A stretch of 64,000 nucleotides of DNA from Amoebophrya sp. A120. Lineage: Eukaryota; Protista; Dinoflagellata. The DNA lies in contig CAJINV010000004.1 of the NCBI GenBank assembly GCA_905178155.1, positions 5,492,734 to 5,556,733 on the forward strand, in the 5' to 3' direction. Numbering within the stretch: the stretch's first letter is position 1; each line of letters starts with the position of its first letter. The position numbers were made by a program, and so were the translations under genes. The notes under the pieces were generated by a model. The model saw only the letters and a program-made list of their open reading frames with translations, did not search any database and was not told where the DNA came from. Of the stretch, positions 1 through 62,629 are shown one piece after another.

Positions 1-54
1 ATTCAAAATTTTGCATGACAAATAAACGAGAGGGGGAGTTGTGCCAGTGTCATA
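1..54. mobile_element. Introner family B, right end only
   Basis: GGGGAGTTGTGCCAGTGTCATA matches the right TIR of 600-814, 11288-11497 and 23029-23248. Confidence 0.75.
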
Positions 55-1183
55 CGTGCGATCGGAGTGGCGCGTGGAGTTCGCGCGGCACCTGCTGCTC
101 ACCATGTTGGCCTGCTACCTCTCCCTGCTCTTTGTCGAGACGCGACCGCTGCTGAGCTTTTCGTTTCTGGGTATCGGGTTCGGGGGCAATTGGGCGATCC
201 TTCCGGCGATTTTGACGTCATGGTACGGCCGAGGGAACGTGGCGGTTGGCTTCAACGTCGCCTGTCTCGTGTTCGTCCTGCTGGGCATACGTCGGAAAAA
301 AAGCATTTTGTTAAGTGTAGTAAGGCTGCCATCCAGAAAAAGAATTATGCAAAATCACTCAAACAGTACCCACAACTTGTCATGCCAGACAACCACGAAA
401 AAATCCTCTTTTCATATAATGTTGGCACCATCTTCATGTACGAGCGCAGTGCACGATAGGTTTTGGCATCTCTGCCCTGCAGAGCAAATTTGTGATGCTG
501 TCGCGCGAAGATGACGCCTCTACATTAGCATGCCTACTTGTTTTTTCCTTGGATACTGCAACCTGTTGGCCGCGCTCTTTGTCTACGTGGATCGGGTGAT
601 ATGAGAGTGCACAACTCCCCCTTCCCCTCATTTGTAATGCAAAATACCAATGGCAATCGCAATGCCACACCTTGCCTCTAAGCACAGTTTGCATGACAAA
701 TTTTGGATCCTTCATCACTACTACAATCCGCGTGCAGATTTGTCATGCAGAAGCCACATGTCTGGCGTTGCTTGTGTTGCTGCTCATGCCATGGAGGGGT
801 TGTGCACTCTCATAGGTGAAAAGTATCGAGGCCGGCGTCGGCTTGATGCACAAGGGGTCTCTGGCCTTGGTCTACGCATTCGCAAAAGTAAAAAATATTG
901 TCGTACCAGTGTACTAGGTTGAATAAAAAATCAAAATCGAGTTTGCCAGCATGCTAAGAAAGGGAATTTGCTTAACAGAGATTAAAAACAACAAACATAC
1001 CTGTCTGGTCTAGGCATGATAGACTGTGATGAGTACGGCTGCGATGGTAGTACAACTTTTGTGGTGCATACGCTCGGCTGTTCCGCGGCCCTCGGGGCCG
1101 TTCTTGTCCGGTTGCGACCCTGCCGCACGCAGGACGGGCAAACGCTCACCACCGTGCGGGTGCCCAGCTGTGCGCGAACCTGA
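55..1183 (+). CDS. Major facilitator superfamily transporter, 3' part (spliced; 5' end outside window)
   Basis: Removing elements 288-422, 437-555, 600-814 and 873-1070 (each plus one 5-bp repeat) gives a continuous hydrophobic protein ...FLGIGFGGNWAILPAILTSWYGRGNVAVGFNVACLVFVLLGTIFNLLAALFVYVDRVK...SLALVGCSAALGAVLVRLRPC..., ending at TGA 1181-1183. The pattern fits MFS TM10-12. Confidence 0.7.
288..422. mobile_element. Degenerate introner (non-canonical intron)
   Basis: Flanked by GGGCA/TGGCA; weak TIR; contains TTGTCATGC; removing 140 nt restores the MFS frame. Confidence 0.6.
437..555. mobile_element. Degenerate introner (non-canonical intron)
   Basis: Flanked by CTTCA/CTGCA; contains TTGTGATGC; ends GGATA; removing 124 nt restores the frame (GTIF|NLLAALF). 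Confidence 0.55.
600..814. mobile_element. Introner family B
   Basis: TIR TATGAGAGTGCACAAC...GTTGTGCACTCTCATA; perfect TSD GGTGA. Confidence 0.9.
873..1070. mobile_element. Introner family F-like (degenerate)
   Basis: TACGCATTCGCAAAAGT...ACTTTTGTGGTGCATA; degraded TSD TGGTC/CGCTC; removing 203 nt restores the frame. Confidence 0.6.
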
Positions 1184-2163
1184 GGAGGCATTCGGAAACA
1201 GCTCCGAAGGTGGTGTAGTGGTGATGGGCTGTTGATATCCATGAAGACGAGCAGGTCATCAACCTTTTGTGAACGCTGGAGCGGGCGCGGCGCAGCCAGG
1301 TATTGCGGTCCTCCTGGGCGGGTCTCAACTGGATTCTGTTGCGCGATGCTGGTTGATAGACTTGAGGATTTCATTGCGCCGCCGTCCCCCACCTGTCTCC
1401 GGGACGAGGCATGTGTGTAGGTTGAGGTCTGATCAAGACGAGAATAAAGCAATTCGCTGTTGTAGAAATTGTTACGTAAATAAGGTGAATCAAACCGAAG
1501 GCACGCGAAGAGAAAGCCCTCCTCATTTGTGACACAACTCCGCATAAGTAGAGACAGAATCGAAAAGTAGATGCAGGGTAGGCACAAGAAGATGAAAGAG
1601 GCAAACAAGGGGATTTATTTTCGAAGTTTCTGTTTCGCCGTTCTTCATCTCGACGCATTGAAAGCAAAGACGTTGATTTGTGCATCAATCTCGAACGTAT
1701 TTCAAAATACGTGTCTGTTTCAAATGCAGAGGCAAATGCACAACTTCGAACCTTCACCGCGGTATAGCTCATCTTCGTGGACACCTAACATCGTCGGTTT
1801 TTTTTTGCGCCTTTTACTAAACTTGTTTTCTAATACTTCTTACTTGCTGAGAGAATACGATATCCTTCGTTCTATCTCTCTTGGTTCAAACCTATTGAGG
1901 CACGACTAGAAAAAGCTGCAAATCACAGAAGCGTTCTGCAAACCTCCAGGATCGTGGTCCACCCACAGTTTTTTACTTCCCGGAAATAGTACACCGGCCA
2001 TGCCGAATGGCTCGGTTCATGGCGATTGCGCACCTGATGCTTGTCGACGATTATTCAGGCCCAGGGTCGTCCTCCCCCGAAGGGAACTTCTAGTGCAGCC
2101 CCGGACCAGCAGTGCCACCGCCTCGCAGCAAGACACCCGTAGAGGAAATCCACCCTCAGCGAA

Positions 2164-5100
2164 ATGTTTTACCCAGACTACGCGTCGCCGACCGCGTTTT
2201 CATCCCATGCGCAGTGCCACTCACAGCCTCCAGAGTGGCAGCTCCGGGACGTGGACGGACGCCGGATTGGGCGACGGCCGGTTTTCAACAAGCACGACCC
2301 GAACACCCAGCGACGGTGGTTGGAATTGCAGCGGGGGCTGGTGAATGAACATGCTGGTGCGGAGGTCTTGCTTCCTGCCGTCGGGGGGCCTGAACGAGTG
2401 GACGCCGCAAGTGGAAGAAGATCTGTTTTTACGCAGTACGACGAGAAAGGAGGTGAGGACACTACTAGATCGGACAAGGATTCTGCTTTCGTGACAGAAA
2501 ATTACGGGACCCGCGCGACGTGTCTCAGTCGTAGTAGAGGTAAACCTCCTCCGTCTGCCGACGTACTGGAGAAAGCGGGGTTTGATACACGGCGATTTTG
2601 TTTGCGTAGAAAGCCCGACGATGATGGGCAGCTGCAGGAGGCTACCTCCGGAAATAAGAGCGTGCTGCTGGAAGAGCAGGTTGTTCCCGCTGTTCGTTCC
2701 AGTGCGGGTACGACTACACAAATCTTCGCTGACCAGCCGAAGCCGGAATTTTACGAAACGCCGGACGATGTTGGGAGTATCAAATGCAAATATGTCTGGG
2801 TCTGGAAAGTTGTAATGCTGAGCGGGGAGTAGTGAATTCTCGGCAATGCACAGCCAAGCATGAGAAATATTTGCGCTGCTTAGTATTGCCTATTGCGCTT
2901 TCCGCATGAAAAACTGCGCTTTGCATGACAAGCAGAAGGGTCCCTTCTTGGGCGCGCATCACAAACTCTACAGTCATGCCAGATAAGCATGACAAATCTT
3001 GCAATCTTCCAGACCCAAACAAATTTTTGCATTTGACAGGGAGGCCGCGGTTGCGATTCACCTCGCTCTTCGAGTCGGGCAATCTGGCTTACGCGACAGA
3101 GACGACAGAAGGGGGCTGCAGTTCACCTAGAAGTCGTCCCGCACCGACGCAGGAACAAGTGGATCTTCGGACCACAAGCAGAACCCGTGGCGCTGCAGAG
3201 CCGGACCATGGCGGGCCGCTGCGGTGCACAACGCAGCCTTTATCATCTGGGGGCACAGCTAAAAGTAGTGCTGCGAAAAGCAGCAGTAGCAGCAGCAGCA
3301 GCCCAAAGACGGGGAAAAAAGCGCGGTCAACAGGAGCACCACCAGTTGGCTCTTCTACTAGCAGTACTGACCGACAAGAAAACAATTTTCACCATGAGAA
3401 GTTGTATTCGCCACCGGCCGTCGAGGTCGACCCAGACCACGGTGGCGCGGCAGGAGCCTGCAATTATGTGGACGGACAAACAAGTGGGCAAACGCAAATT
3501 CCTCCTGATCCAGATGGTTCATTTGTAGCACGTGCGAGGACGTCTTCGCCTGTGGACCTGCAGTACGACCTCTACCTGGACTACGACCTCGGAACTAAAG
3601 GGTATACCCAGTGGTTTTACTTCGCCCTGCAGGGTGTGAACGTCAAGCGCGGGTCGAGGATTCGCCTCCGGATCCGGAACTTGACCAAGGTGTCCAAGAT
3701 GTACAGCCGGCAGGATCTTCTTCTGGATGGTAGAGACCGGCGCACCGGCCCGACGGGGCAGTCACCTCCACACGGCGTCGGACCAGCTCCTGCTGGTACT
3801 GCAAGAGGAAGTAGTGATAAAGATGCTAGCAATGTCGCTGGACGAGCAGCTTGTTCAGAGGAAAATGCAAGGGCAAGCACCCAACAACAACAGCAGAACC
3901 TCCCTTCGACTGCACCTTTTTATCGCCACCCAATGACACCGGTTACCTGGAGCTACGCGATGCCCGAGCTCGGCTGGACAAGAGGGGCTGCGAATATAGT
4001 GGTACAGCCTAGCTACGGGACCGCCACCGCTCCGAGCAGCGAAAGGGCGCGGGGTCGAAATTCTGGGGCGGGTGAAACCCCTCTGGTGGCGGTGCCGGCC
4101 GTGACTCCCTGGGTGAATCACGACGTAGCGTTGTACAACGCATACTGCAAACATCTGGACCTGCTGCAAGAGCAAGATGCAGAGTCTAATCATACGTTGA
4201 ATGCACGAGGACCTGCTCAGATGAATTATACTGTTTCAGCATCAAATGCTTTTGCTTGTTCATCAAGTACTAAGCAGAGTTCTTCCGTACCTCGCACGAC
4301 GAACCGCCAGAAGGGACGGGATCCGCGAAACTGGACCACGCTGCAGTTTGACTACCTGTTTGAAGCAGACGACGACACCGTGGCCTTTGCCTTCCACTAC
4401 CCCTATACCTACACGCAGTGCCGGGAGTGGTGCCGGGAAATCTGCAAGATCGTCAAGAAACGCGAGAAGTCTTCGTCTTCCTGTTTAGTGCGGGACGAGG
4501 ATCATTACTGTCCTGGTAGTGCCACTGCCAGCAGGTCTAGGCATGCTGCTCAAGGCCACCCCGGAGGAATAGGAAACACGAGCAGTCGTGGGGCAAGCCG
4601 GGACAAATCTGGTGCGCTGGTGACGGCGTGCAAAACGAATTTGTGTAGTAGTACGACCACACTGACAAACCACCGCGCTGCTGCGCCCGGTACTTCTACA
4701 ACTAGAAGCTTCCAGCACACAACTTCCCCAACATCCCCACCTTCGCAGAGGAAATTTACCTCATCTATTGCGGAACCACAAGTGAAGACCACGGTCAAAC
4801 TCCGGACTCTGTGTCACACGCCGAGCGGATTGCCGTGCGAGCTGTTAGAGATCAGCGACGACGTTGTTCTGGACGAGTTTGATGGAAGTAGATCTGGGAC
4901 GAGGAGTGCAGAGAGTTCTTCCGCACAGAAGGTGAAGTCCTCTGCCAGGGAACAAGACCGGAGACCGTTTATCTTCGTCAACGCTCGTTGTCATCCGGGG
5001 GAAACCAACAGCAGCTTCATGCTGCAGGGCTTCGTCTCCTGGCTGTTGGGGCTACATGTTCCAAGCGAAAATTGTGGTGATGAAGGTAGTACGGACCCCC

Positions 5101-8100
5101 GCACCCTAGGTGGTGGCTCCACCATCTCTGCAGCGGAACTGCGGCGGAAATTTCGCTGGTTCATACTGCCCATGCTGAATCCGGACGGCGTGGTCGCGGG
5201 GAACACGCGGTGTTGCCTCTCCGGCTTTGACCTCAACCGCAGCTTTGCGCACCCGCACAAGCAGCTGCAGCCGACGGTCTGGGCGCTGAAGCGCCTTTGG
5301 CGCACTTTGGTGGTGAAGGAAAAGCGCAGGTTTGCGTTTTTCTTCGATTTTCACGGCCACGCAAACAAGGAGGGCGTGTTTTTCTTTGGAAACGAGCCGT
5401 CTTGTAGTAGTTCCTTCGGGAGTGATGTTGTAGAACCTTTCAACGACGCAGGGAGTAGTTGTACCACTAGTGGTCTTTGGATGAACAACCTTATTTCACC
5501 TTCCACGGCAGCAGTTGTTGTGTCCTCTAGTTCATCTGCGGCCAACAAGCAGATTCTCGGAGGGGTTGGAGCACAGAGGCATGGTTCACCAGGAACATTT
5601 TCAAATGGCGGAGTTGCCACAACTGCTGCCTCATCTTCTCATCACTTTCGGGGAGGCTTGCGGGACCCGAGCGGAGGGCGGTTAATATGCGGAAGTACAA
5701 CAAGAAGTGGTACAAGAAATCAGCAGAAGGAGAACCATGGAAATAATAAATCCGCCTCGTCTGGCGCAGCTTCGGAGGTCGCAGCATTTTCATTATCGGC
5801 ATTCTCATCATCTTCCGCTACACCGCCATCCGCTTGCGTGTCTGCCGCACTGCTGAGCGCCCGGATCCGGCTGTTGCCGACTCTGGCAAGTTTTGCCTCG
5901 ACCGACTTCGTCGCGGGAAGCTGCGCGTTCGAAAACAAGCCGGGAACCGCGAGATTTGTGGTGGCCGCGGAGTTCGGGTGCTTTTTCAGCTACACTGTAG
6001 AAGCGTCGTTCTGGTGTATGGACGTGGCGCAGAGGCGGCTGGAGGACGAAAGAAAGGCTTTGCTTTTTTTCGGCAGTCACCGCACCGATCTTCGCGCGAG
6101 CGCCGCTGGGCGAGTCGACCAGCGAGCCTTTGATACAGGCCCTAAAACCGCGGAGCAGGGGGATGGTACAACTACCACAGAAGTCCAAGCCGCGGGCGTG
6201 GGGAGCCGGCGGGTTGCAGCTCCGGCGCCGCAAGAATCACTATGCCTTCAGGCCGGAGTGACGACGATGCGTTCAAGTTCATCTCGCGAAGATGCTAGGA
6301 GCCCGGACGGTGGTGAAAGAGGAAAAGCGACACCAAGAAAGGAATGGGCCGCTGCAGTACAAGGGCTACCTCGCGAGCAGGAAAACGAGGAAGCAGCTCC
6401 ACACAGTGTTACTGTACCTCCTTGCGGAGGAGCGCGGGCAACAGCGGCGCAAGTTGTTGCAAGTGTAGACCTATGCATTGCAAAAGTATCGTACTAGTAG
6501 AAATAGCATGACAAGTCTTGCCAAGAAAGAAAGGGGAATTTGTAATGCTGATTTACCTAAGATCGGAGATTTGTCATGCATCATTGCGATTACTATCAGT
6601 GCGATGCTTTTGCAATGCATAAGGCCCGCCGATTGATGTTGTTCCGGCAGCCGAGGTCCAGCGGCTCAAGTCCGCCAAGGCGGCGGAGCGACGGGCCCGG
6701 CTCGCGGTCCGCGAGGAGCGGGTGGAGAACATCCGCATTATGCAATTACAAAAGTAGCGTACTACGTATGAATTGCATCACAAATAATTTTTGCTGTAAA
6801 AGGAACAGGAAGTAAGAAATTTGTAATGCTGATCAGGAGATGAAAGGACAAGGAGGTTTCGTTTGTAATGTAGAACCCGAACTACGTGGGAGTACGCTTA
6901 TACTTTTGCAAACCATTCGCCTGGTGTTGCGGCAACTGCGGCTCGGGGTGCCGGTGGCCCGGTTGCCGGAGGAGGTTCCCGTCGCGGAGCTGGACACCGT
7001 GAACAAGGTGCTTCTGGAGTTGGATCGACGGGCGGTGCGAAGTTTTATGAAAGACCACCCGCAGCCGGACCGAGAACATCAACTTGTGTTTAACAAGAAC
7101 GGGCAGGATGAACAGGTGGAGCTTCTTGACATACAGATTCCAAACACGAGTGCTGCAGGAGCTCCACTCGTGGTCCGCCTGGCCGACACGCAAACGGTAT
7201 CGCCGACGGGTGGTTGTGCAACTGCAAGAACCTCTATGCAATACAAATTTCCCGTACATGTACAAGATGCATCACAAAGTTCACCACTCTGGGGCGTAAA
7301 ACTTGTCATGCCAAACTAGGATCGAAGCCAAGTTTTGTCATGCAGAGACCGCATTTGTACGTGTACAGGAAATTTACTGTGGATAACCTCTCAGTGGATC
7401 GACTTGGACACCACAACGAACTCCCCCTCGAGCGGGGCGACGATGAAAAACTCCAATCACAAGCACAGAACTACCTCCTCTGCTGCAGATAGAGATGCGG
7501 CCAGCTGCGCGACTGAGAACATCAAGCGAGACCACGACGACACTGATTTAGAAGCAACACTAGCGGGCTGCAGCGAGTGGCTCCGGTCGAAGCACGTGGA
7601 AAGTTTAGGGAAACCGACGTTGCCGCGCCCGTATTTATTGTGTGATAGGGACGACGTCGAAAGCACACCACTGGTGGGCCGCGAAGACGAGGGCTTATTT
7701 CATCTTCCGGCATTCGAAGATGCAACGGAGCAGTTAGTGAAAAGCCAAAACATCTACTTTTCGCCGCACCGGTTAGAATCTGTGGGAACAGCGTTGGGCC
7801 ACGCTCTGGCATCGTTCCTGCAATGCACGGATGTTGATCAACAGTACGAGCGAGGAACGACAAAGGAAGGGAAAAAAGTAGATGCTCCGCAGGTGCGAAT
7901 GTTGGCAGAGAAGCGGCTGGAGGAAGCGAAGTTGGTGGTTGGGGGGAGCAATAACAACGACCGAAACGACGAGAACTACGGCCATCTCGGAGTCGTACAC
8001 GACCACGATCGCAAAGTAGAAGTCGTCTCAAAAAAACACGACGTCTGGGCGAGCTGCGAGGAGAAACTGCAAGACGCGTGGAATGCTGCGCTCGAGGACT

Positions 8101-11100
8101 ACTTTCTGACTCTTCCCGCCGACCACCGAAAACGGGCACTGGCGATTGCGCGAGCAGGAACAAATTGTTCTGCAGAAGAACTTGTTCGTCCCACCGCGAT
8201 AAATCATCGATCCGTCGAAGTAGATTATATCAGAGTCGCAAACAACACTCGCGGTCGTGGTCAACAAAATCGTACATCACAGGTAGACCAAGCAACTCCC
8301 GGCAGCGTGGGCAATTCTACTATTTCCGCGCCCGGAGGAGCAGTTGTACTAGATTCCATTACACGCACGACGTCCAGCAGCGCCGCGCCGAACCAGGGCG
8401 GCAGCAGTGCGGGGCCCGGGACGGGTAGCTGTGGAACCGTTGTGTACCGCAGCAGCAGTACTAGTAGCAACCACGAGACCAGCTGCACCACGGGGCCGGT
8501 GCACGGGGCGGGGCGCCTCGTGGGGTACCGCGCCGTAGGGTCCGGGTACGGCCGCCCCGCGAGTGTCGCCTCCGCGGCGTTTATCAGATGTAAAAATGTC
8601 TGGGTCTGGAAGAATGCAGCTTGTCATGCTAATTCTGAAGCATGCAAAAATCTGTGTTGCATGATTACCAAAAGTCGTCCAGTTTTGACCAAGTCGGGAG
8701 GGAGTTTCTCATGCAGGATAGGCATGAGAGAGATCGCACAGAATCTGTCGTGCTAGGTCCTGCATTCCAGACCTCATGGGTCATGGAAAAGCTGCATGAC
8801 AAATCGCGCATTCTTTCAGACCCAGACACTTTTGCATTTGATAGCGTTGCGCGGCGCGGATGATGCGTGCTCGGTGGTGAGCGGTTATCAAATGCAAAAA
8901 TGTCTGGGTCTGGAAGATGGTCATGCTTGTCTGGCATGACAAAAAAGTTTGTGATGCGTGTCCAAGAAGAGACCTTTTTGCCTGTCATGCAAAAACGCAG
9001 TTTCTCATGCGAAAAACGCAACACAAAGAAGCGCAGATATTTCTCATGCTTGGCTGTGCATTACAGAGCATTCACTATCCCCAACACAGCACTACAAGTT
9101 TCCAGACCCAGACGTATTTGCACTTGATAGTGGTTACGCGACGACCATCGCGGGGGGCGGCGGGGGATTTCTGTTGCATCATGGGGACCACGACGAGAGG
9201 AGGTACTATCACGACACATATGTTTTCGAAGACCACGAGAATTTTTACGGAGTAGAACTGCATCAAGAAGCACAGTCTCTCTCTCAGCCGGGTGGTGACA
9301 GAGAAATGAAGCGGAAAACACCTCGTCAGGAAGGTGAGGTGCTAGTATCTTCGCACGGAAGAAACAACTTTTCTTCCACGACAACTAATCCGGTAAGCCA
9401 CGTAAACTCCAATTCGTCTGCCTCATCGGGTAATATTCAAACCTCCTCGGAGGACGAAAATGGAACAGCGTCGAGAGAGCAGAAGAGCTGCTGCCCTACT
9501 GCGGTGTTGCCACCACTCCCGCAGCCCTGGATGATCGCCTTGGCCGCGGAATACAAAACTAGTACCAGACAAGAAAATTGTAACAGCAACGGGCGGCCGC
9601 TAGATAAAGCGCAAGCGGTTTCTTGTTTGCAACGACCCCTAGAACAAGTTGAACACGGCGGAGCCCTTATCTCTTTAAACCGGCAAAGCTTCGAGAACAT
9701 AATCACGTTGGAAAATATTCTCCTGCGGCAAAATGACCTAGATTTCGAACCGCTGTACTTCTTGACGGGAAGATCATCCTTGGCGGGAACAACGACCTCG
9801 CTGCTTCGGAGTGCGGCTGTGAAAGCCTTCGTGGAGCAAGTGAACGGGAAAAATATTAAAGACGGGAGCGGTGTTTATAATTTTGCAGACCTTTTTTATT
9901 CTTCTCCAGTGGGCAGCGATGTTGCTGTTGGTCTCGGCGGAAGGAAAAGTAGCGCAACTACAAGTTCTTCTACTGAACAACGTTGTAATTATTCTTATCC
10001 GTCATCGAACAATTATCCGGGGGCGCAAATCAGATCGACCACTGCGCCGACTTTTCCGCTTGGTCGCGCCGACGTCGTCGGGCCGTTTCACAATCGAGCG
10101 GAATCGGACAGCGAGGAGGACTCTCGTGAGGACGGACAGGAGGGGTTGCGTTGTTTTGAAGACAAAGATGCAGCTCTGGGGAATTATGCTGGTGGTTACA
10201 AGTTGCATCACAACAACCTAAGCAGGAGGCCAAGGTAATTTATTCTACAAAAAATCTTATTCATCTGCTAAATTAAAAATTGAACGAAAATTTTATCAAA
10301 CTGTGACGTAGTCTCTTGCACTCTTTTTCGTTTTTTCGATCCCTTCAGCTGTCTGCACAGTCGTTCCACCAATTTTTTTCCCATGACATCAGGTCAGTGC
10401 AGCAGTTTCGCAGAAAGGCTCCGCTAATCCAACGCGAAATCTGCTTTTCGCCGCCAGATTTAGAAGAAGTGACGTCTTCAACTACTACGCAACACGGGGA
10501 AAAAATAGCGGCGACGGTGCGTAGAACTTCTTCTGCAAATGCAACCAATGATGGCTGCTCGAATGAACAGCCTGAGCAGGTCTATTGTGTGGAGAGACCA
10601 CGAGGACAGGCGCAATTATCGGGCAGTAGTGCAAGTATTCATCAAAACCCCGATATGATTTTTGCCAATCGCACGACCTCCGCGTTTGAGCCTGTGTCAC
10701 GAAAAATCCACCTGCAGCCGAAGCTCCCCGTGCAGAGAAGGCGTGGTCATGATGAAGACGACATCAAAGCAGGGGACTTCTCGCTTCAAGATTTGATGGA
10801 AACAGGAAAAGTGATTAAAGCGGTGGAGAAGAAACAAAAAGAAGCCGTGGCTGCTGGCGCACCAACATCCCGGGTGGACGACGAGGTGCAAGAACATCAA
10901 AAGCTCTGCTCCTCCTCCCGCAGAATTGTCGAAGCCGCAGCTGGTAAAAATTGGGTTCTAGATCCGAAGTCGCAGCATGTTAGTATGGTACAGAAGCAGG
11001 CACAGGAACTTCGGTCGCCTCGCTCCAAAAAAGGAGATCGTGAGAAGGGCCATCAAACAGAAAGTGGTAGTAGAAGGCGAAACAAAGGAGAAGCACGGGT

Positions 11101-34247: not shown

Positions 34248-34276
34248 TCTTGTCCTTTTCTCGCTCGCTCGGCACA

Positions 34277-45703: not shown

Positions 45704-46042
45704 CTTCATTCTCTTCTGCGACGACCGTGAATCTGCCCCCTCGCCCTCGACGCCCGCGTCTTCATCCTCCTCCTCGAAGACAACTATCGGGACCAGCGAT
45801 GACACCAAGAAACAGGACACCGAGAAGAAGTATTCTTATTTTTTCTTAGGTCTTGGCCTGTTGTTGCCTGTGTTTTGGTATGCGCGCAGTCACATGCGAT
45901 GCATTCGATCAGCTCAAACTCGAAACACAGGTAATTTGGCGCCCGCCCGATCACCACCGGTACCAACGGCACAACACACACCACAAGCACCCACCCCACA
46001 CAAAAAAGGTATAGTCTCTCCCTATTTTGTGATGTCTTAGTG

Positions 46043-51300: not shown

Positions 51301-53393
51301 GCAGCATTACAGATCTAGTATCTCATGCTGATTGGCGCATTACAGATTTCCAAACCGCATTAGAAAATGCTTCTCATGGGGCTCCGCATGAGAAACATTT
51401 TAAGCATGCAGAGTAGCATGACAACTATGGTGTGGGTGCGTTTTTACACAGGATAAGCAACAGAGAAGATCTCGTAGATGAAACCCAAAGAACTTCTACC
51501 CCCGTACTAGATGAAGTTATTTTGCCGCTCAAGGTGAAAAGAACCCGCCAACAAGTGACAAACAATAAATTTCACGAAGACGAGGTAACAAGCAAAAAAT
51601 TTCCGCGGATCGCTCGCGAAACGAGCAGCGCATCGTCAGCTGCCAGCACAAGCATCGGGTCCGAGGGGACGCTATGGATTGCAAATATGTCTGGGTTTGG
51701 AAGCATTGGAACTTGTCATGCGGATTCCAGAATAGGCAAAAATTTGTATTGCAAGAGCCCCAGTAGAAAGAAGCTTTGGCTTTGCGTTTCTTGCTACCAA
51801 AAAGGGAATTTGTCATGTGGGACAGACAATAGATAACAGGCCTGCGCAAAACCTGAAATCCTTTTGCGTGCATTAGAGACCATCTGTGTAATCCAGAAAA
51901 TGCATGACAAACATTTGCAGTCTGCCAGACCCAGACATATTTGCACTGGATAGACGCAACACGGGATCTCGTCCTCTTCGCGCTTCACCTCGGTGGAGGA
52001 CTTCTCGGATGCGTTTGCGGGGCAAGAAAGGTCTTCTAGGGGTGGAACTCTACTGCCCCCGGTCTTTTCTCATCTTGCCGCAGCCGCGGTTGCAAGTAGT
52101 AACAGCAGTGCGCGAACGAGCGGAGAAGCGCCTGGTATTGGGTCAGCACTACCTTCTTCACCAACAGCAACTACTTCTCTAGAAGCGACTCCATATTACA
52201 ATTCAAATCAAGAAGATCCTCTTCATAATGCGCTCGCAAATCAAAAGAATGTTCGCCGGCGCGTGTACGACCGCGTTGTCCGCAGTATGCCGACTACCTT
52301 CGCCCGCCAGAATGCCCTATTGCAGCTGGAAGCCGTGCTGGGTTTGCGGTTCGTGCTGCGCTTGGACGAAACAGAATTCATCTGGACCTCCGGAGCCGCG
52401 CTCGATATCAAATGCAAAAATGTGTGGGTCTGGAAGATTGCGAGATTTGTCATGCTTGTCCGGCATGACAAAAAAGTTTGTGATGCGTGTCCAAGAAGAG
52501 ACCCTTATGCCTGTCATGCAAAAACGCAGTTTCTCATGCGAAAACCGAACACAAAGAAGCGCAGATATTTCTCATGCTTGGCTGTCCATTGCAGAGCATT
52601 CACTATTCCCAACACAGCATTACAAGTTTCCAGACTCAGACATTTTTGCAGTTGATACTCGACGGCCGGAGGAGGCTCGGTTTGAAGGAGTATCTTTCGG
52701 GAAGTTCTACTCGTTATGAAATGCAAAAATGTCTGGGTCTGGAGCAGTGGAACTTGTGATGCGTGTCTTGCATTCCTGGAAAATCTGTGTTGCATGAGCA
52801 GCAAAAGTAAAAGAGGAGCTTGCTTTGTCATGCAAAAACGCAACTTGTGATGCGTGACAGGCATCAGCAGGCGTTTCTAGACTTGTCATGCCTGGCTGCC
52901 ATTGCAAGCGCTTCAATCATGCTTAATTCAGCATCACAGATTTCCAGACCCAGACATATTTGCAATCCATACTCGTAGAGCGCTGCAGGATCTTCATCCT
53001 CGTCGTTCTTGCTATAGTTGCTATAACTGCTGCGCCGCGGTGGATGCAGGCAGAAGCAGAAGGTATAGAAGTTCTTGTGTATTTCCATGCAATTCTTCAA
53101 GAAGAACATCGTCACCTGTCGTGAAACAGCTTGCTGCCGCTTTCGCCAACTGCTACCGACAAAGCTGCAACGACACTGAAAGTTATGAAGCCTGCTCGGA
53201 CGAGGACGACGAGTGTGGCAGTAGGATCGGAAGCGACGACGACGACGACGAGGGGGACACGAGTAGTTTCTCTAGTTGTGCACAAGAGCCTGCTCCAGAC
53301 TCTCTAGAACTGTGGAGCAATGAGGAGTACACGGCGTATGAAGAGTCGGATAAAATCGTCAACATCATTTTCCACGCTGACCGGGTCTGGTAG
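48322..53393 (+). CDS. Putative secreted protein of unknown function; 6 exons
   Basis: Signal-peptide-like N-terminus (MRRLRPVFPSLVLLWSARFLSL); frame continuous to TAG 53391-53393 after removing five TIR elements. Confidence 0.65.
48498..49391. mobile_element. Introner-like TIR element flanked by a 34-bp duplication and carrying a nested MITE
   Basis: TIR core AAAAAACTGYGTTAGTGTAGGT at both ends; CCGCTGATAAAGGAGCTCCTGTTACTGCCGGGGA repeated at 48464-48497 and 49393-49426. Confidence 0.8.
48678..49209. mobile_element. Non-autonomous TTAA-targeting DNA transposon (Kolobok-like MITE)
   Basis: TTAA|GGAGGCAGGACTC...GAGTCCTGCCTCC|TTAA: perfect 13-bp TIR with GG...CC termini; no coding capacity. 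Confidence 0.75.
51176..51455. mobile_element. Introner family D
   Basis: TATCCTGAGTAAAAATGTCCCCAC...GTGGGTGCGTTTTTACACAGGATA; TSD AACAA/AGCAA. Confidence 0.9.
51673..51952. mobile_element. Introner family A
   Basis: Family A TIR; TSD GACGC. Confidence 0.9.
52406..52657. mobile_element. Introner family A
   Basis: Family A TIR; TSD CTCGA. Confidence 0.92.
52715..52971. mobile_element. Introner family A
   Basis: Family A TIR; TSD CTCGT. Confidence 0.9.
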
Positions 53394-55099
53394 AGCATTC
53401 AATATGCTCATTTGCGGTTGATATTTTTAACACTAGGACTACTTCTGTAGAGTAGACTTACGCGGACAACTTTTCGTCTGTGGCGCTTGTAGCAATTTTG
53501 ATTGAAAAATGGCTCGAGTTAATTTCGTTCAAGTGTGTAGTACGTAGTTTCATTTTCTCGATGCTGAATGTGTATGAAGAAACACATGCTGGGAGGTTGA
53601 ACAATGATTTTGCTACAAATGTACCGTTTGCGTTTCGTACCATCCAATGTACTCACTTTTGCAGTTGAATATTTTCACAATTTCCATCAAAACTATACCT
53701 ACGTAAGCCCCGCGCAACATGGTAGTACTCCATAAAGTCAATGTCCGCGAAATGTAACAAATGAAGCGGAAAATGAAAAAGTTTTGTCCACAGGAGCATG
53801 TTTTTGTCTGGTAAAACACAACAAGCACCTCTACCACGCCAAAGTAATTTCAGCTCCGGGAAGAATTGTTTTTCATCCTGGGAACTTCTTTCTACCACGG
53901 GTGGTCAGCACCGAATGTTGACTAGTGCCGCTAGCGCTGCGACAGTGAGGTTGATACAGCAATGCAAATCAGTGGATGTATTGTTTCAGCACGAAGACTC
54001 TACTGCAAAGATGATGCTAGGGGGGCACTACTGGTCTTGAGGATCAAAATTGAAGATCGAGAGAAAGAATTGCGTTCAAATAGAACAGAAACTGGACAAA
54101 ACTTGCTGTACCGCCGCACCGCCTGAGTACTTGCTACGAACAGACCAATTCGGTACAATACAAATCCGATCCAATGTTGTACAGACGTGACAAAGACAAC
54201 ATTTTGATCAAGCTGAAGCGCGAAAACTTCTTCGGTCCACGACCACGTCAGTGTAGATAAGTGAGTTGAATACCCGTGGTTCGGTGGCTCCTACATGCTA
54301 GAGTACGAAATTAAAGAGTACAAGAATAACTGCACCACATCACGGGAAAAAATAGGTGCTGATCACGATCATGATGAGAGCGCGCGAGGCGATATTTTAA
54401 CGTGGAGACGACGCTTTAATTTTTCAATAGTAAGTAAGTGACTGCTTGCGCTTTTGTTCTCGGTTTGACACATGTTCTCGCTCGTAGGAGAATGACAATG
54501 AAAAAACACATGTCGCTGACAGCAGGCCCCTCCTGATTACCCTAGTTATTTGCTTACCTCACAATAATCACGGCCTTTTTATTATTTGAGCTGCTAACCA
54601 GCGATATCTCGCTGTCCCTACTGAAAGCAGCATCTACAGACACTGAAAACTGAAACGACAGGAAAAGCTACATTTGCAAAACTGACGTTGGGGTTTTACA
54701 TATTCTTGTACCTGACTACAAACTCCATTTTAATAATTCGAATTGTCATACGGAAAAAAAATAAAAAACACAAAGAGCTCCATCATGATTGTTCATAAAC
54801 CTCTGAAGATGCTGCCCTCCTCCTTGCGAGTCGTTTCGTTTGTAGAGTCAGTAGCACTCCTACTCGCTCTACAAGCTTCTTCGTTATTGATCTCCATGCC
54901 CCCCACTAGTGTTGCGAGGGTGCAGAAGATGCGTGCTACTTCTGCCACGCGGGCACTAGATTTGCAGCATTGCTTCGACCTTGCGACGGACGTGCAGTAT
55001 TATTGCCATGAAAAACCGCGGGACAATATGGATGCCGTTCTGGTCGAGTACGTGACGACAAAGAAGACGGCGAAGGTGCGATACATATGCGATACATAA

Positions 55100-55955
55100 C
55101 CAAATATTCGAAAGAAGGAAGAAATTTCTAAAATCTCCAATCTGTGATGATGAATTTCAGATTATGACTAAATCCATGCCACATCAAATATACGAAAATC
55201 ATCTTCAAGATATCGATCGAAAACAAAATTCTTTTCAGAACAGAAATAGATCTGGAAGATTTTTCCATGAAAAATCATATATCGATCGATTCATCGAGAA
55301 GAATGGAGAGAAGGAATATGTATTCGAATTATTTTTAAGATGTTCTGTGAATGTGATTCATGATAATCGAAATGAATATAAGAAATTAAGACAATGAATA
55401 TATCTTCAATGACATGTATATGGATTCATATTCCCTCTTGATTTTTTATGTGGATTCATTCTTCATGACTTTTTATTTCCTCTTGATTTTTAATCACATT
55501 GAAGAATTGAAAACGACATATGGATTTCAAGAATCAAAATTAGAATGGAAAGATTCTTCTTCTTTCGAAAGCGAATAGACATAGAATAATATTGATAGAA
55601 TATCAGAATTTCATTCTTTCGAAAATGATATATGGTCTCTGATCTCAATGGATGATCATGAATGAATCTTCTCTCTACAATCGACAATATATTTTCAATC
55701 CGATAATATCACAAATTCACTCACATTACGAATTCCGGAAAGCAACAGAACAAAAAAAATGGAAAAATTTGAATTTATTCCTATGAATCCATCAAAGAAT
55801 GACATGAATTTCAACATCAGATTTTTCGATATTTTATTTTTTCCTCCGAAGATGATATCCTTATCGATCGAGAATTGTCATAATTCGAACCCCAGAATGA
55901 AGAAGAAAAAGAAACATCTCCATTTTCGAAAGAGAATCATAAGAAAGATGGGTAG
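55100..55955. other. AT-rich island of foreign-looking composition
   Basis: Abrupt drop in GC with frequent ATCGAT/GAAT/ATTC words; only short, unrecognisable ORFs. Confidence 0.6.
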
Positions 55956-56015
55956 TGAGCATGAGACTCCGTTTCGAGTAGTATACACTGGCCCCGGGAA
56001 GTCGTGATCATGTAG

Positions 56016-59000
56016 TCATGTCTTTATCGTTGTCATTTTCTCTAAAAGTGGTGGTCTATGTTGCACAAAGGGTAAATCCACCACCTTCAGAGGCACCAAT
56101 TTTCTGTAGTTACCCCGCTTGATGCCCTGCATCAAGTGGAATTTGATCCTGAGCAAAAACGTCCCCCATACCAGAGTTGTCATGCAGATTTGCAATTACA
56201 GCAACATTTGTAACTAATGGCATTTCCAATCGTTTTTTGAAATTTGTAATGTTGTAAGCAGGATAGGAGAGTGGCTTTGTCATGTGGTTGTGCTTGCTAC
56301 CCTGTACTACAATACAGAGAAAAATTTGTCATGCGTCACCCCCAAAACTTCTGGATTTGTGATGCTGAGTTCCCAACTTGACTCTGGGGTGGGGACGTTT
56401 TTGCTCAGCATAAATTTGATCCGTTCGCCGGACATTCTCCCCGCCGGCAGGTCGAACAACACGCTGGCAAACAAGCGCTTCCCCTCCTCCGCGTATTCCG
56501 GGTGGACGTAGCCCAACGCAATCCGGGTCTTCTTATGTGGGGAGAAACAACAGCTGCCGATGTGCCCCACCATCCGTCGGATGAAGCCCCCGTCGGAGAT
56601 GAGGACGCAGCCGGGGTGCGCGAACTTGCCCGGTTGAATTTCCAACCCGACCAAACGCCACTTCGGGCCGCGCGCCAGATCGTAGAACAATCGTTGCCAC
56701 CCGAAGAGGGTGTGGTTGCGAAGCTTGTTTTGCGAGATCGTCCAGGCGAGGGAGGCTCTCACCGGGGTCACCATGCCGGGCAGCAGATCCTGGCCCATTT
56801 TGACGTGCCCGGCCTCCAGACGGAGGAGGTCAAAGGCCTGGTAGGTGCCGAGGAGCAGCTGAGGGTCGTGGCGGTCGTCGTCTGTAGTAAAAGATCCGTC
56901 AACAAACGTTTGATCACATAATTCTCGTTGTTCTGGTATTACAACTCTGGCCTGCTTCTGGGGTTCATCTAGTGCGGAGGCCCCTGTGGTCCTCAGGGCT
57001 TTCTCGTTGAAAATCCGCACCAGCCGGTCATGGCCGAAAATAACAAATCCGTCCTCGCCGGTCATCGAGACTCGGGCGATGTGGAGGTGCAGAAGCTCTT
57101 CCGGATTATAGGCGTATTGCTCTTCACAGCTACTGCTTCCACTTGATGTAGTTGGGCACGTACTATCCTCTTGTTCTGCAGAGAACAACATACTTGGACG
57201 ACTACGTCGTTCTCTCGTTCTACCCGGCGCAGCGGCGAAGGACAGACAGCTGTTTGTTGGCATGCGGGTGATTTTTTTCCGCAGGGAAGCCGCTCGACGC
57301 AAGGCTGCCGACGCCGGGCGAGCCACGACGCTGTCGTCGGTTGTTGCTGTCGTCGAAGTGCTGTTATCGGCTGTTTCATCAGGCTCCTCGTCAAGACTAG
57401 AGGACAGGAAAACGACCGGATTGATTTCATCGCCGGTACTTCTATCAGAGTCCTCGTACAGTCGCGCCACGGTCCCAGCGACCGTCACCGCGCTTGCCGG
57501 TCCTGCAATTTCCACGGATGCCGACATCTTGTGGAAGGTGGAATTGCGTATGCGCGCCGCTTTCGCGATCTCGTCGTCGAAGATGAAAGTACTATCGACT
57601 TGTCCGCATTCGGAGGAGGAAATGGTAACGTCAAGCCCAGTTTGCCGCGTGTACATGACGTAGTTCTGGAGGTAGTCGAAGGTCTGCTTCGCATCGTGGC
57701 CCTCGAGGACGAGAAAAATGTCGTTCTGCATCTTGCACACGAATCCCACATCCAGCACGCGCGCCATCGTGTCCAAGACGCAGGAGTAACACACGTCCCC
57801 GGGCTCCATCTTGGTGCGGACGTCAGTCGTGAGAAAGTGGTCGGTATCCAGTGCAAATATCCCTGGATGTGGTCTGGAAGGTGAGAACTTGTGATGCTGT
57901 CGTTGGATTCTGAACAAATCTGTATTGCAGGCCCAGCGATATTAGGAGTCCAGTCTGTGGACTCACGGCGAGGGCATTTCTCATGCAGAATGGGCATCAG
58001 GAAGCCCTCTGAAAATCTGTGATGTTGCCAGGTCATGCATTACAGGCATTATGGGTCATGCAAAATATGCATGACAAGCCTGGCAATCTTCCAGACCCAG
58101 ACATATTTGCACAATGCATAGTCGGCCACCACCGCGCGGTCCCGCCCGGAAAGCCGGAAAATCTGACGGAAAGACGTGTCGAACAAAACCGCGGAGGTAT
58201 TGTGAGGAAAAATCCCCCCTCCCCATATTACAACGAAGTTTCTGATGCTGGATTTGAGTACACAAATCAGGTTTGTCTTGCAGAAAGTGCTTGGCGGCAT
58301 TTTCTGAGCCTGTTTGGGTATGCAGAAGGCTCGCAATTACGCATGGCAAACAGGTTTGCAGTAGCCGAAAGCGGATGACAGATTGCCTTTGGAATGCGCC
58401 ACATGGCTCCTATTGCCCTATAGGCAAGACAAAGATGATTTGTGACCACAAATCAGCATCACAAATTTCCATTTTGAAATGGGGAGGGAGGATTTTTCCT
58501 CTTAATAGGAGGTTCGCGCTGCCGTCACTGTCTGTTGCGTGGACGGGAGGAATACACGACGAGTGCGGCACTCGTCGCGGTGGGGTTGTGAACAAGCAGG
58601 TTGAGGAGATTCAGATGGTGACATGAGTTTGGGTCGTTGTTGTCCCTTTTGATGATAATGCGATCTTCGTTGTTGCACAACTTCTACCTCCCCCGATGTT
58701 CTTGAGCATTCTTCATCCTCAGCTTTGCTCTCCCCTACTACAGTTCTTCTCCACGTTGGTTTGACGCTCATCGGCAGCACGCAGCGGTTCACCTCACCCC
58801 AATCGATTTCGATGTGTTCTCGATGCGCCGCCTTGCTCCACACGTCGCACAACGCCGTGCACCGGAGCTCCTTCCACGGGTTGCCTGTACTACTGCCATA
58901 TCAAATGTAAAAATGTCTGGGTCTGGAAGAATGGAAGGCTTGTCATGCTTGTCTGGCATGACCCATGATGCTTGTAATGCATGACCCAGCATCACAGATT

Positions 59001-62000
59001 TTTGGAAAGCTTCCTGATGCCATTTCCGCATGACAAATGCCCTCCTCGCGTAGCACAAATGTGGCTCCTCTTGCTGGTCATGCAATACAGATTTTTTTAG
59101 AGTCCAAAATTAGCATCACAAGTTCCAACTTTCCAGACCCAGACACTTTTACATTTGATATGCCAAAAAGGTTGGCTGTCGGTTCTGCAAAATCCTCGAT
59201 ATTACCGCTGGAGACTGACGGAGATTGGGTATGATCCGATGTTATCATATGTAAAAACGTCACCACACCAGAGTCAAGATGGGAACTTAGCGACACAAAT
59301 CCAGAAGTTTTGGGAGCCACGCATGACAAGTTGCAGTCCGTAGTGTAGTTACGCATGTTAGCAACGAGAACCACATCACAAATCCATCTGCTCATCCTGT
59401 TTACAGCATTACAAAATCCAAAACACGATTGGAAACGCCCCTCAATGAGATGCGCATTACAAATCTTCCTGTAGTCGCAAATCTGCATGACAACTCTGGG
59501 GTGGGAACATTTTTACTCAGGATAGATGTTGTTACGAGGTCCTGTCGCGTTTCTTCTCGCGGCGTACTAGCTGCCACAGCTGTTGATGTCGAAATATCAA
59601 CTCGGTCTGGACTGGTCGTAGCCGTTGCTCCTTCTACGGGTACAGAGGGCGAAGCTATTGAAAGGAAAAGTCCCCCCTCCCCATATCGAAAAGGTATGTT
59701 TCCGACAATTTGTCTTGGTGATTTGAGACCACAAACCACGTCTGTCTTGCAAGAAGACAATCCCACAGGCTCTGCCGCATTATGCAGGCGGTTTGTGATG
59801 GATGCTGTTGGGCCTACAGCATAGCCGTTTCCCACGCTAAGCGCCTAGGCCAAAACCTCTCTAATCAGGCTTGGCAGGAGCCTGCAGTCCTCTACTGCAA
59901 GACAGACCTGATTTGTATATGCAAATCCAGCATCAGAATCAGAAACTTCCGGTGGATATGGGGAGGGGGGATTTTTCCTTGTGATAAAAGCAGACGGAGT
60001 CATGCAGTTTGAGGACGACCTCTCGGCAGCCTCAGGCTGCAAACCATGGTCCTCGTGCCCGTTGGGCTGAGAGAATGAGCAGTTTTTTCCCGGCAGCGTG
60101 GTGGTATTTTCATTCTCTGCAGAAACGTGAAGATCTGACGGAGCTGCAGCAGTTGTGCTGGCTGCTACGATATGCATTGCAAATATGTCTGGGTCTGGAA
60201 GGTTGAAACTTGTGATGCGCATTTCAGAACACAGAAAAATCTCTCATGCATAGGCAGCAAAAGTTGCCCACTTTCTGTCACCAAAATCAGGGATTTGTCA
60301 TGCGGATTCGGCATTCCGAATGCTTCTCGAAACCTGTGATGCTAGAGCCTCCATGCCAGACCTTCTGTGTCATGCAAAAACAGCATGAGTCTTCCAGACC
60401 CAGACATTTTTACATTTGATATTCGATAGAAACCCTTGCGCCCTTATAATTTCCATCTACGACTACGTCACCGGAAGGTGGTGCTGCGGCCCTTCCACTG
60501 CTCATCTGCGCCGATGCTGGCAAATCAAAACCGGGCGATGTAGTTCTTGAAGAAGGTTCCTCGAGGAGCTGTTGGAGTGTAGTTTTCGAATCCCCTTGAT
60601 GTAGCTCGTCCTGCAAGGACATCTGATCACCGGGTCCGATGGCGCCGTCGTTGAGATTCTTGACCCCTCGAACCAAAAGGTCGACATGATCTTGCCGAAA
60701 GTGGTTCGAGTCGGGCATCGTGGCTTGAATTTGCTGCTTGACTTGCAACTGCTCCTCCAGTAGGGGAGCGAGGTTTATTGAGGGCTGCCGGAAGAGCGGG
60801 CTGGGCGGGAGTTTTTGTGTACTACGAGTAGAACTGGGGACGAGGAACAAATGTTGGTCCTGCGATTTGATGTTCGATGCAGGATCATTTTCTACACAAC
60901 TTCTGGTTCCGCCTCCAGTACTGCTGCTTGTGCTCTTCGCAGCATCAACAGAGGTTGAAGATTTCGTCGCGCCGAATGCAGAAAAATTTGACGGATCAAC
61001 ACCGTGAAAGGGGGTATTTAGAAGATGCTGTTGACCTCCTCCACTCTCGCCAGTAGTTGTAGTGCAGCTCCTGCTACCCACCTCCACCTCGACCTCGTTC
61101 TGCAGTCGTGCCGCGAAATAGTCGTCGATGTTTTTTTCCCGCTGCGCCAGCCACTCCTGCTGCGCACTGTTGGGTCCGGAGAGCTTGCCTAGTTCGTGCA
61201 GCCGCAACGGATTGCGCAGCCAACCCCCGTGGGTACCGCACCGGCCACTGCGTTTTATTTGGAATGACGTTTTTTTAGTAGTACTTTTGGTAGGGGTTCT
61301 ATTGCAAGGAAAAATCCCCCCTCCCCATATTGAAAACGCATCCTTCTGAAAAGCAGACTCGTGATTTGTGACCACAGAGCGGGCCTGTCTTGCTAGAAGG
61401 CAGATCCAGGCTCTCTGCCACGTTATGCAGGCGATTTGTAATGCTGTAAGGCTCACAGGGTAGTCGTCTACCATGCTAGGTGCCTACACCAAAAGACCCC
61501 CGCCTAGGCTCAGGATCTGCGTGCATTCCTCTACTGCAACACAAATTTGATTTGTGTATTCAAATCCAGCATCAGAAATTTCGTTTTGATATGGGGAGGG
61601 GGGATTTTTCCTTTTGATAGGTTCTAGTGTAGTTCTCCGCGACGTCCACTCCGGAAGATGAGGAGGACCAGGACTCTATCCTATGTAAAAACGTCCCCAC
61701 CCCAGAGCTGTCATGCAGGTAGGCATGCGAAAAATGTTTGTCATGCGGAGCCCCATGAGAAGTATTCTCTAGTCGTGTTTTGGAACTTGCAGCGCTCCAA
61801 TCAGCGTGATAGGCTAGATCTGTGATGCTGCTGAACGAACTAAGCAGGATCACACTACGAGGACAAAGCTGTCATGCGAAACAACCAGAGGTGGCTGATT
61901 TGTCTAGCGGATTTCCCAATTTGACTCTGGAGTGGGGACATTTTTACTCAGGATAGACTCTTCGATGACCGGCGCAGCATCTTCCGAGATATTTACGAAA

Positions 62001-62351
62001 CGGTTGTGCTGCTCGAGAACCTCCTCCGCGTCAGGATCCACCAGTGCAGCCCCCGGGAGGTCTTGCTCCTCTTCCGCTGCTTGCTTCTTGATCTGCAAAC
62101 TGGGGCAATTGGGGTACTGCTGCAACTATGCATTGCAAACGCATCGCTCTCGTATAAATGCATTACAAATTCCCTCAGCATGAGAAACAAAGTTTGTCAT
62201 GCGGATTTACCTTAGGAAAAAAAATTGTAATGCATGACTGCAATTACTACGAGTACGATAATTTTGCACAGGATAGCAACAGAAATTCGCTGCGCTTGCG
62301 GTGGATCGCGGCGGTCAGGCGGCCACGCCGCGTCGGAGTTTTAGTCCACAT
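56016..62351 (-). CDS. GcvT-family aminomethyltransferase-like protein with a long N-terminal extension, probably mitochondrial; 11 coding exons
   Basis: After removing 10 introners: LRCTALCD, RTSAVLFDTS..IFRLSGRD, PGDVCYSCVLD, RVSMTGEDGF, LLRLEAG, TPVRASLAW, RLVGL, FSP...IALGYV and VVDLPFV. Arg-rich N-terminus MWTKTPTRRGRLTAAIHRKR; stop at 56018-56016. Confidence 0.82.
56145..56412. mobile_element. Introner family D
   Basis: GATCCTGAGCAAAAACGTCCCC...GGGGACGTTTTTGCTCAGCATA; TSD AATTT. Confidence 0.9.
57845..58120. mobile_element. Introner family A
   Basis: Family A TIR; TSD GTCGG. Confidence 0.9.
58198..58507. mobile_element. Introner family E
   Basis: TATTGTGAGGAAAAATCCCCCCTCCCC...GGGGAGGGAGGATTTTTCCTCTTAATA; TSD GGAGG. 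Confidence 0.9.
58899..59160. mobile_element. Introner family A
   Basis: Near-perfect family A TIR; TSD TGCCA. Confidence 0.92.
59243..59524. mobile_element. Introner family D
   Basis: Family D TIR; TSD GATGT. Confidence 0.9.
59656..59986. mobile_element. Introner family E
   Basis: Family E TIR; TSD GAAGC/AAAGC. Confidence 0.9.
60171..60421. mobile_element. Introner family A
   Basis: Family A TIR; TSD TACGA/TTCGA. Confidence 0.9.
61300..61619. mobile_element. Introner family E
   Basis: Family E TIR; TSD GGTTC. Confidence 0.9.
61677..61955. mobile_element. Introner family D
   Basis: Family D TIR; TSD GACTC. Confidence 0.9.
62127..62275. mobile_element. Introner family F
   Basis: TATGCATTGCAAA...TTTTGCACAGGATA; TSD GCAAC. 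Confidence 0.85.
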
Positions 62352-62368
62352 AGGTAAAAATGTTAACC

Positions 62369-62629
62369 TATCAAATGCAAAAATGTCTGGGTCTGGAAAA
62401 GTGTAGACTTGTCATGCAGATTTTCCATGACCCATGAGGTCTGGAATGCGGGCCATAGCATGACAGACTCTGCGAGGTCTCTGCCATGCCTATCCTGCAT
62501 GAGAAACTCCCTTCCAACTTGTTCAAAAGTGTGCCGCTTTTGGCACTCATGCAACACAGATTTTTGCATGCTTCAGATTTACCATGACAAGTTGCAATCT
62601 TCCAGACCCAGACATTTTTGGAATTCATA
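62369..62629. mobile_element. Introner family A, probably in the 5' UTR of the GcvT-like gene
   Basis: Family A TIR; TSD TAACC. Excision does not put the upstream ATG (62691) in frame, so it is placed in the UTR. Confidence 0.88.

Follow-up and report, generated by a model that had tools for sequence, protein, structure and literature searches.

In the dinoflagellate Amoebophrya sp. A120, five genes within one 64,000-nucleotide stretch of DNA (contig CAJINV010000004.1, positions 5,492,734 to 5,556,733 of the forward strand; hereafter the window) are interrupted by short elements with inverted TA...TA ends and a flanking 5-bp direct repeat, the target-site duplication (TSD). Transcript assemblies lack exactly the element plus one 5-bp copy, and the DNA keeps the element. 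These inserts are the published introner elements (IEs) of A120, lying in the published genome, and the system is already known. What is new is a probable position for the cuts, one base before and four bases after the element, where the published description gives the border position as unknown.

The elements were collected by scanning for TA[TC]...[AG]TA pairs with inverted ends, a terminal inverted repeat (TIR) of at least 13/18 and a 5-bp flanking repeat. The scan returned 18 matches with an exact duplication and 26 with at most one mismatch; 20 shuffles gave means of 0 and 0.1. Degenerate copies were added from the end profile and the RNA joints. The result is 34 complete elements of 149–331 bp, 13% of the window, and two incomplete copies: one cut by the window start (it ends at 54), and one degenerate (30527 to about 30848). 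The original prediction of about 38 such elements was right about their existence and too high in its count, which is 36. Their ends read TAY, seven variable bases, AAAA. The predicted TA...TA ends and 5-bp repeat are borne out: read in the direction of transcription, all 34 begin with TA, and four lack the TA at the 3′ end; 157 of 170 duplication bases match (23 duplications exact, 11 with one or two mismatches), and lengths of 2–4 and 6–9 give 23–35%.

The window list was partly chosen on the 5-mer, and the duplication test was repeated on independent loci: 136, from metagenome contigs matched by end pattern, all in one whole-genome shotgun set, JACKZZ01. Among 283 end pairs there, paired blind to their flanks, the 5-mer is exact in 222 and has one mismatch in 37, two in nine, and three or more in 15; no other duplication length exceeds 33%. 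JACKZZ01 carries the same element families, with best identities of 73–95% to window copies and matches for 29 of the 34 window elements; no flanks common to the two were found among the 136 loci. The end pattern was absent from the viral contigs and prokaryote genomes searched, and the elements had no match in Rfam.

Eleven sequencing runs were listed, and none covering the stretch is on record as RNA. A DNA run (X1) spans all of it at about 50-fold depth, and no differences appear where its contigs extend into elements or bridge them; one, at 51674–52260, passes through an element at a depth of 46.1, against 46.8 in the flank. Runs X3 and X5 are RNA-like: they show no depth at 54325–55776, where the DNA run has 50–81. 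Further RNA-like signs are a poly(A) end at 1658 (one run) and removal of a GT-AG intron (one run).

In the window's first 14,500 nt, all four runs join 284 to 558 (273 nt, or 268 + 5), 594 to 815 (220 nt, 215 + 5), and 870 to 1074 (203 nt, 198 + 5). In the gene at 49397–53393, X3 and X5 skip 285 and 285 nt (each 280 + 5) and 519 nt (257 + 262, two elements); in the GcvT-like gene, X5 skips 596 nt (281 + 315, two elements). At each of the nine elements with a readable skip size, then, element plus 5 nt is gone, as the transcript check proposed earlier had anticipated. A transcript-based protein record agrees at 10 of 10 junctions, and together the RNA-like contigs and the protein record support 17 of the 34 elements. 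Spliced forms dominate: their depth is 14–45, against 3.4 for an unspliced contig at 890–1043. RNA contigs hardly cover the cytosolic carboxypeptidase (CCP) gene, and a raw RNA run of 2026 (X9) has no exon coverage in 49001–63500. Many X9 reads, which bear the same species label, match only an element end (62545–62619) and a repeat at about 63.2 kb in the window (63236–63360) and then run into other element-like ends; X9 apparently represents a different strain, in which elements of this type are transcribed and retained.

Removal of element plus 5 nt yields long open reading frames (ORFs) in the host genes. If any one element is left in, the ORF becomes shorter (31 of 33 cases) or shifts frame (the other two), and the GcvT domain aligns without gaps across two element junctions. 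The junctions singled out earlier, RTS/AVLFD in GcvT and VG/RPRLRFTSLFESGNL in CCP, were reproduced. The observation that removing the element with one repeat copy restores the frame therefore stands, but not as proof of the length removed, because element plus 2 or plus 8 nt also restores it. That exactly 5 nt leave is established by the RNA contigs and the protein record, not by frame alone. No further annotated A120 proteins could be added: 0 of 10 guessed ORFs matched, and a CCP search gave distant CCPs only. The two TA dinucleotides leave with the element, and a Tc1/mariner-type TA duplication was rejected.

The elements need neither GT/AG nor a given orientation. Only three window elements can be read as GT-AG anywhere in the repeat, with the TSDs GGTGA, CGAGG, and GGTTA that the original prediction named; 31 cannot. 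Among related JACKZZ01 loci, 307 elements were found and 197 assigned a strand by our own codon model alone; 13 of the 197 are readable as G[TC]-AG at any register. G stands at +1 in 62, and AG occurs 13 times against 18.7 expected; neither is enriched. Five JACKZZ01 families split into 28 elements in the same and 26 in the opposite orientation, and near-identical interiors occur in opposite transcript orientation within the window (for example, 22621 and 62369, at 94%). Introners of Polarella, Symbiodinium, and Aureococcus (bioRxiv 10.1101/2020.10.14.339549) likewise have a TIR and a TSD, lose one TSD copy, and in some cases are spliced in both orientations. However, their GT, GC, or GA donors and AG acceptors come from the TSD or the element. 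The A120 elements require no such sites, and a G[TC]-AG reading exists in just the 3 of 34 and 13 of 197 given above.

The identity with published IEs is close. Farhat et al. (2021; PMC7789003) report 29,850 IEs in A120, with ends that begin TAT and continue, after seven less-conserved bases, with three or more A; direct repeats of 3–5 nt, given as 5 bp in the Fig. S19 legend; and non-canonical introns of about 240 nt with RNA-seq support. The window elements lie in the same genome and share the inverted-repeat start (TAT, seven variable bases, at least three A), the direct repeat (5 nt here), and removal without GT-AG (9 of 9 sized skips; 31 of 34 elements). They also belong to repeated families, some within the window; DNA depth summed over element bins reaches up to 305,218 against about 50, a figure that is not a copy number. 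The Amoebophrya precedent invoked earlier was thus correct and nearer than claimed: A120 itself, with the 5-bp repeat already in a legend. Two differences stand out. The duplication is strictly 5 bp here once the ends are set at TAY..RTA, and we infer a single cut register, whereas the Fig. 3 legend of that paper calls the splice sites variable and the border position unknown. Gozashti et al. (2025; PMC12130899) class A120 introner families as TIR DNA transposons of unknown superfamily, 150–330 bp long with many non-canonical sites. Their automated TSD calls run from 2 to 5 in the 22 of 118 Amoebophrya rows covered, where ours are strictly 5, and those passages and rows give no cut register.

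Where the two repeat copies differ, the junction tells how many bases of the upstream copy are kept, a number called k here. RNA joints give k of at least 2 at 51176 and 288 and at least 3 at 873, keeping the upstream base at positions 1–3. At the element ending at 54, whose upstream copy lies outside the window, the contig has a base at position 2 other than that of the downstream copy (k at least 2). The GcvT-like gene minus its ten elements equals the A120 protein record CAD7945942.1, with 0 of 1185 differences, at k = 4 only: k of 3 or less gives V389 rather than E389, and k = 5 gives L449 rather than S449. Neither junction contains a canonical splice site that could have drawn the annotation, and the gene models of A120 derive from transcript alignments (PMC7789003, section 25). 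The proposal to place the cut by mismatched duplications has in this way yielded a candidate: one register, k = 4, fits all six informative junctions, and we think it on balance the probable one. At k = 4 the intron is one base, the element, and four bases, N-U-A-U...A-U-A-N-N-N-N, or N/N-U-A-U...A-U-A-N-N-N-N/N with slashes at the cuts. In Table S4 of Farhat et al., all nine of the commonest A120 non-canonical motifs begin NT, and all nine from strain A25 begin TT (PMC7789003). In the strict strand set, every 5′ end keeps the first T (135/135), against 129/135 at 3′ ends (p = 0.03).

Other approaches to k were neutral. A codon-likelihood test on 40 mismatches in related loci showed no trend, with one stop codon favouring the upstream base at position 2. 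The polarity of mismatches (hand count) runs 15 to 8 in the direction expected for k = 4, but equally so for k = 1, and is uninformative. No statement of a fixed register was found in the literature searched, whose reach stopped short of figures, Roy et al. in its final form in Current Biology, supplementary files 13–14 of Gozashti et al., and 96 of the 118 Amoebophrya places in their file 8.

These observations suggest a model in which the elements are non-autonomous TA..TA DNA transposons and a modified spliceosome, measuring from the terminal motif, takes them out of the pre-mRNA; we rate it about equally likely to be right or wrong. A modified spliceosome is proposed because of U+2 and A+3, and because U2, U4, U5, U6, and most spliceosomal proteins are reported whereas U1 is not (PMC7789003). 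Whichever way it is inserted, the element would supply U+2 and A+3 as found in an ordinary donor; distance from the terminal motif, not AG, would set the acceptor; and the target 5-mer would be rebuilt from four upstream bases and one downstream base. With the whole 5-mer rebuilt, any insertion would be silent at the protein level, and as overhangs of 1 + 4 equal the 5-bp duplication, insertion anywhere would give a perfect intron from birth. For the code itself we lean slightly toward a ruler: a symmetric TAY-N7-AAAA end motif, derived from a single TA..TA transposon superfamily, that sets both cuts (1 nt at 5′, where U+2 and A+3 alone survive from the ancestral donor, and 4 nt at 3′), with no G+1 or AG, in either orientation, whether or not the hairpin has decayed.

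Several points weigh against this reading. Every RNA run that reaches the exons consists of contigs and comes from a single sample in a single study, taken as RNA by guess, and for 17 of 34 elements the reading frame is the sole evidence. The upper and lower limits of k = 4 are two residues of one annotated protein; direct RNA joints reach only k of at least 2 (three) and at least 3 (one). A register varying from element to element would give the six-junction data with a chance of about 4–6% under uniform k (hand calculation), and the Fig. 3 legend speaks of variable sites. Eight of the nine A120 motifs in Table S4 also end AN, the mirror register, and aligner preference may shape that table (PMC7789003). 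With a relaxed strand caller, the first T is changed at 1 of 231 5′ ends and 6 of 231 3′ ends (p = 0.12), and two elements have a changed A at 5′ position 2. An A at −7 common to canonical introns was rejected: it appeared in 9 of 31 candidates with a stricter finder, the first finder having been too noisy. Finally, neither a transposase nor an empty site was found among the 136 JACKZZ01 loci and five long elements, whose ORFs were judged by eye.

Removal by a tRNA-splicing or IRE1/RtcB-type endonuclease and ligase is a model for a different machine: a non-spliceosomal protein enzyme that would recognise the paired ends and cut at fixed offsets, a route also suspected for the nonconventional introns of euglenids. 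Folding lends it weight: against 12 shuffles each, 30 of 34 elements are the more stable (z < −2), and in 26 of 34 the two ends are predicted to pair. So does the excess of G-U over A-C pairs in transcript sense across TIR positions 1–24 (46 versus 25; p = 0.017), although the excess is not significant at positions 1–16 (28 versus 19; p = 0.24). The lack of an acceptor dinucleotide and of a reported U1 (PMC7789003) would fit as well, as would the nonconventional introns of Euglena, where spacers are counted from a paired motif (Nomura et al. 2025; PMC12501133). Those euglenid introns resemble the A120 elements in lacking GT-AG, pairing a terminal motif, and keeping fixed spacers to the exon borders. 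They differ in detail. Their motif is CAG/CTG, their spacers are N3 and N5-6, and the exon begins with a purine; the A120 elements have TAT/ATA, inferred spacers of 1 and 4, and no base preference, and their ends lack the N3-CDG ... CHG-N5-6 signature. Against such an enzyme stand two RNA-proven elements, 288–555 (z +0.3) and 873–1070 (z −0.9), for which no good hairpin is predicted; both nevertheless retain TAY-N7-AAA at their two ends and are removed precisely. Their precise removal points to recognition of the end motif, not of pairing alone. The register proposed here, moreover, would give introns of both A120 and A25 the U+2 and A+3 of spliceosomal donors. We consider a protein endonuclease unlikely.

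A relaxed spliceosome might instead remove element plus 5 nt with a cut that slides within the duplication from element to element, making k = 4 a coincidence. The Fig. 3 legend of Farhat et al. (PMC7789003) and the mixed splice-site counts per A120 family in Gozashti et al. (PMC12130899) read naturally this way, and just six junctions are informative. Yet all six fit one register, and an aligner cannot resolve published positions inside a perfect repeat; a sliding cut seems to us improbable.

Two further alternatives fare worse. If the elements stayed in the RNA and the joints arose when reverse transcriptase switched template between short repeats on either side of a hairpin, the geometry of the joints would be that of a known artefact (PMC2923612), and those at 284, 870, and 51172 would be equally expected. 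But a retained element breaks the ORF, even inside the gap-free GcvT domain; skipped forms dominate at elements with 2–3 nt of usable repeat and no stable hairpin; and E389 would call for switching on 1 nt of homology where 3 nt were available. We give this very little credence. TAY ends and short direct repeats recall the internal eliminated sequences of ciliates, and the 15 DNA joints listed of 1598 leave room for rare excised alleles, but removal from DNA in an expressed genome is least credible of all, for the DNA contigs keep the elements at flank depth, which disfavours it as the main route, and none of those 15 joints is an element-plus-5 skip, so that the DNA check proposed earlier came out in favour of retention.

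Returning to the elements as transposons, they have the features of miniature inverted-repeat transposable elements: a TIR, a fixed-length TSD, short length, and many copies. They are likely non-autonomous DNA transposons. The original description of them as non-autonomous transposons removed without GT-AG therefore survives in its second half (31 of 34, with RNA-like contigs), while transposon origin stays an inference, no transposase or empty site having been found. Farhat et al. argue against general mobilisation of IEs by transposase (PMC7789003). An integrase-like DDE transposase is predicted from TA..TA ends resembling those of IS3EU/GingerRoot elements, which share such termini and use integrase-related DDE enzymes (PMC10045372). 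However, those elements make 6-bp TSDs, and none of 283 pairs here is exact at length 6; Ginger2, also with an integrase-related DDE enzyme, has a TSD of 4–5 bp (PMC10045372). No superfamily is assigned, because no transposase was found.

Several observations concern the interior and the decay of elements. An internal motif, TTGTNWTGC, and its complement recur about 32–45 nt from each end, often at a spacing of about 31 nt, and are candidate transposase-binding sites. Four long JACKZZ01 elements (L043:3001–3972, L027:3315–3945, L026:571–1051, and L015:3314–3770) contain nested insertions, some with short duplications of their own; a fifth (L068:476–2934) has an insert carrying an ORF and could be a chance pairing. 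Other mobile DNA may find shelter in introners. A strong solo left end at 17416 is a possible decayed element, as are 36805–36990 and 38400–38520, where the internal TGTCATGCA motif of elements occurs without paired ends.

The five interrupted genes encode a membrane protein, a Peptidase_M14 carboxypeptidase, a CCCH zinc-finger protein, a protein without assigned function, and, on the minus strand, the GcvT-like protein; the others lie on the plus strand. As predicted, most of their interruptions are elements: 35, against four GT-AG introns, one of which is RNA-supported and three of which are inferred from frame or motif.

The membrane-protein gene, the tested piece of which had no Pfam match, contains the element cut by the window start (1–54; downstream copy CGTGC at 55–59; contigs leave the window at 57 in three of four runs). 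Three elements with RNA joints follow: degenerate 288–555 (TSD GGGCA/CTGCA), 600–814 (GGTGA), and degenerate 873–1070 (TGGTC/CGCTC). The cytosolic carboxypeptidase-like gene (2164–14118) gives a 3331-codon ORF after removal of one GT-AG intron, the control at 10235–10392 (joint in one of four runs), and eight elements backed by frame evidence only: 2778–3038 (GGGAG, 3′ end CA), 6472–6621 (AGACC/AGGCC), degenerate 6739–6917 (CGCAT/CGCCT), 7235–7385 (ACCTC), 8582–8843 (GCGTT), 8886–9129 (GCGGT/GTGGT), 11288–11497 (CGGAA), and 11938–12241 (TCGAC).

The CCCH gene (21334–28156) gives 1418 codons after removal of eight elements and the three inferred GT-AG introns (24511–24755, 24830–25072, and 27515–27701). 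Six elements have frame evidence only: 22321–22574 (CATCT), 23029–23248 (CGCCG), 23644–23834 (GTGCG/GTGCA), 25232–25490 (TTATT), 26631–26789 (CCGAG/CGGAG, 3′ end CA), and 27777–28079 (TCGAG/TCCAG). The others are 22621–22881 (GCCGA), whose interior is the one resembling 62369, and 26249–26452 (CGAGG), the sole element that would have GT-AG borders at k = 4. A further, degenerate copy (at 30527; flanks GTATC/GTAAG) lies outside any traced ORF.

The gene without assigned function (49397–53393; about 960 codons; transcript contig 49396–53975; no Pfam match for the two exons tested) has four elements. Two show the 285-nt skips in X3 and X5: 51176–51455 (AACAA/AGCAA) and 51673–51952 (GACGC), the latter whole in the DNA contig at flank depth. 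The paired 519-nt skip covers 52406–52657 (CTCGA) and 52715–52971 (CTCGT).

The GcvT/aminomethyltransferase-like gene (56016–62351) matches its protein record after removal of ten elements, with TSDs in transcript sense: 56145–56412 (AAATT), 57845–58120 (CCGAC), 58198–58507 (CCTCC; the RTS/AVLFD junction), 58899–59160 (TGGCA), 59243–59524 (ACATC), 59656–59986 (GCTTT/GCTTC; the S449 junction, k at most 4), 60171–60421 (TCGAA/TCGTA; the E389 junction, k at least 4), 61300–61619 (GAACC), 61677–61955 (GAGTC), and 62127–62275 (GTTGC). The second and third also make up the paired 596-nt skip in X5. An eleventh minus-strand element, 62369–62629 (GGTTA), lies just upstream of the annotated start codon.

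Elsewhere in the window, an element-free block at about 33500–46700 carries an RVT_1 ORF (41812–43680; E 4.9e-6, below the Pfam cut-off), RNase H-like and tyrosine-recombinase-like ORFs, and several GT-AG introns. It resembles a DIRS-type retroelement; no terminal repeats of the block were found. At 28127–30529, a 2.3-kb piece with a Copia-type RVT_2 ORF (28172–29719) lies between two 43-bp copies (98%) of the CCCH stop region, the second of which runs into the degenerate element at 30527. An intergenic AT-rich imperfect palindrome of about 720 bp, built of repeated AAAAGTGAAAAATCA motifs, lies within 19900–20780. An intronless gene at 16443–17054 encodes a Cass2/GyrI-like effector-binding protein (PF14526), a family that is usually bacterial; horizontal transfer is possible. 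Finally, 55060–55980 is an AT-rich (32% GC), single-copy stretch without RNA contig coverage.

The candidate register makes the open question of cut position testable on public RNA-seq. If true, a fixed 1 + 4 register would gather tens of thousands of introns that seem to lack any motif into a single class whose ends are defined, and it predicts the form of the excised RNA or lariat. It would also explain how transposons can saturate coding sequence at low cost: splicing restores the target, whatever its sequence or the orientation of the element.

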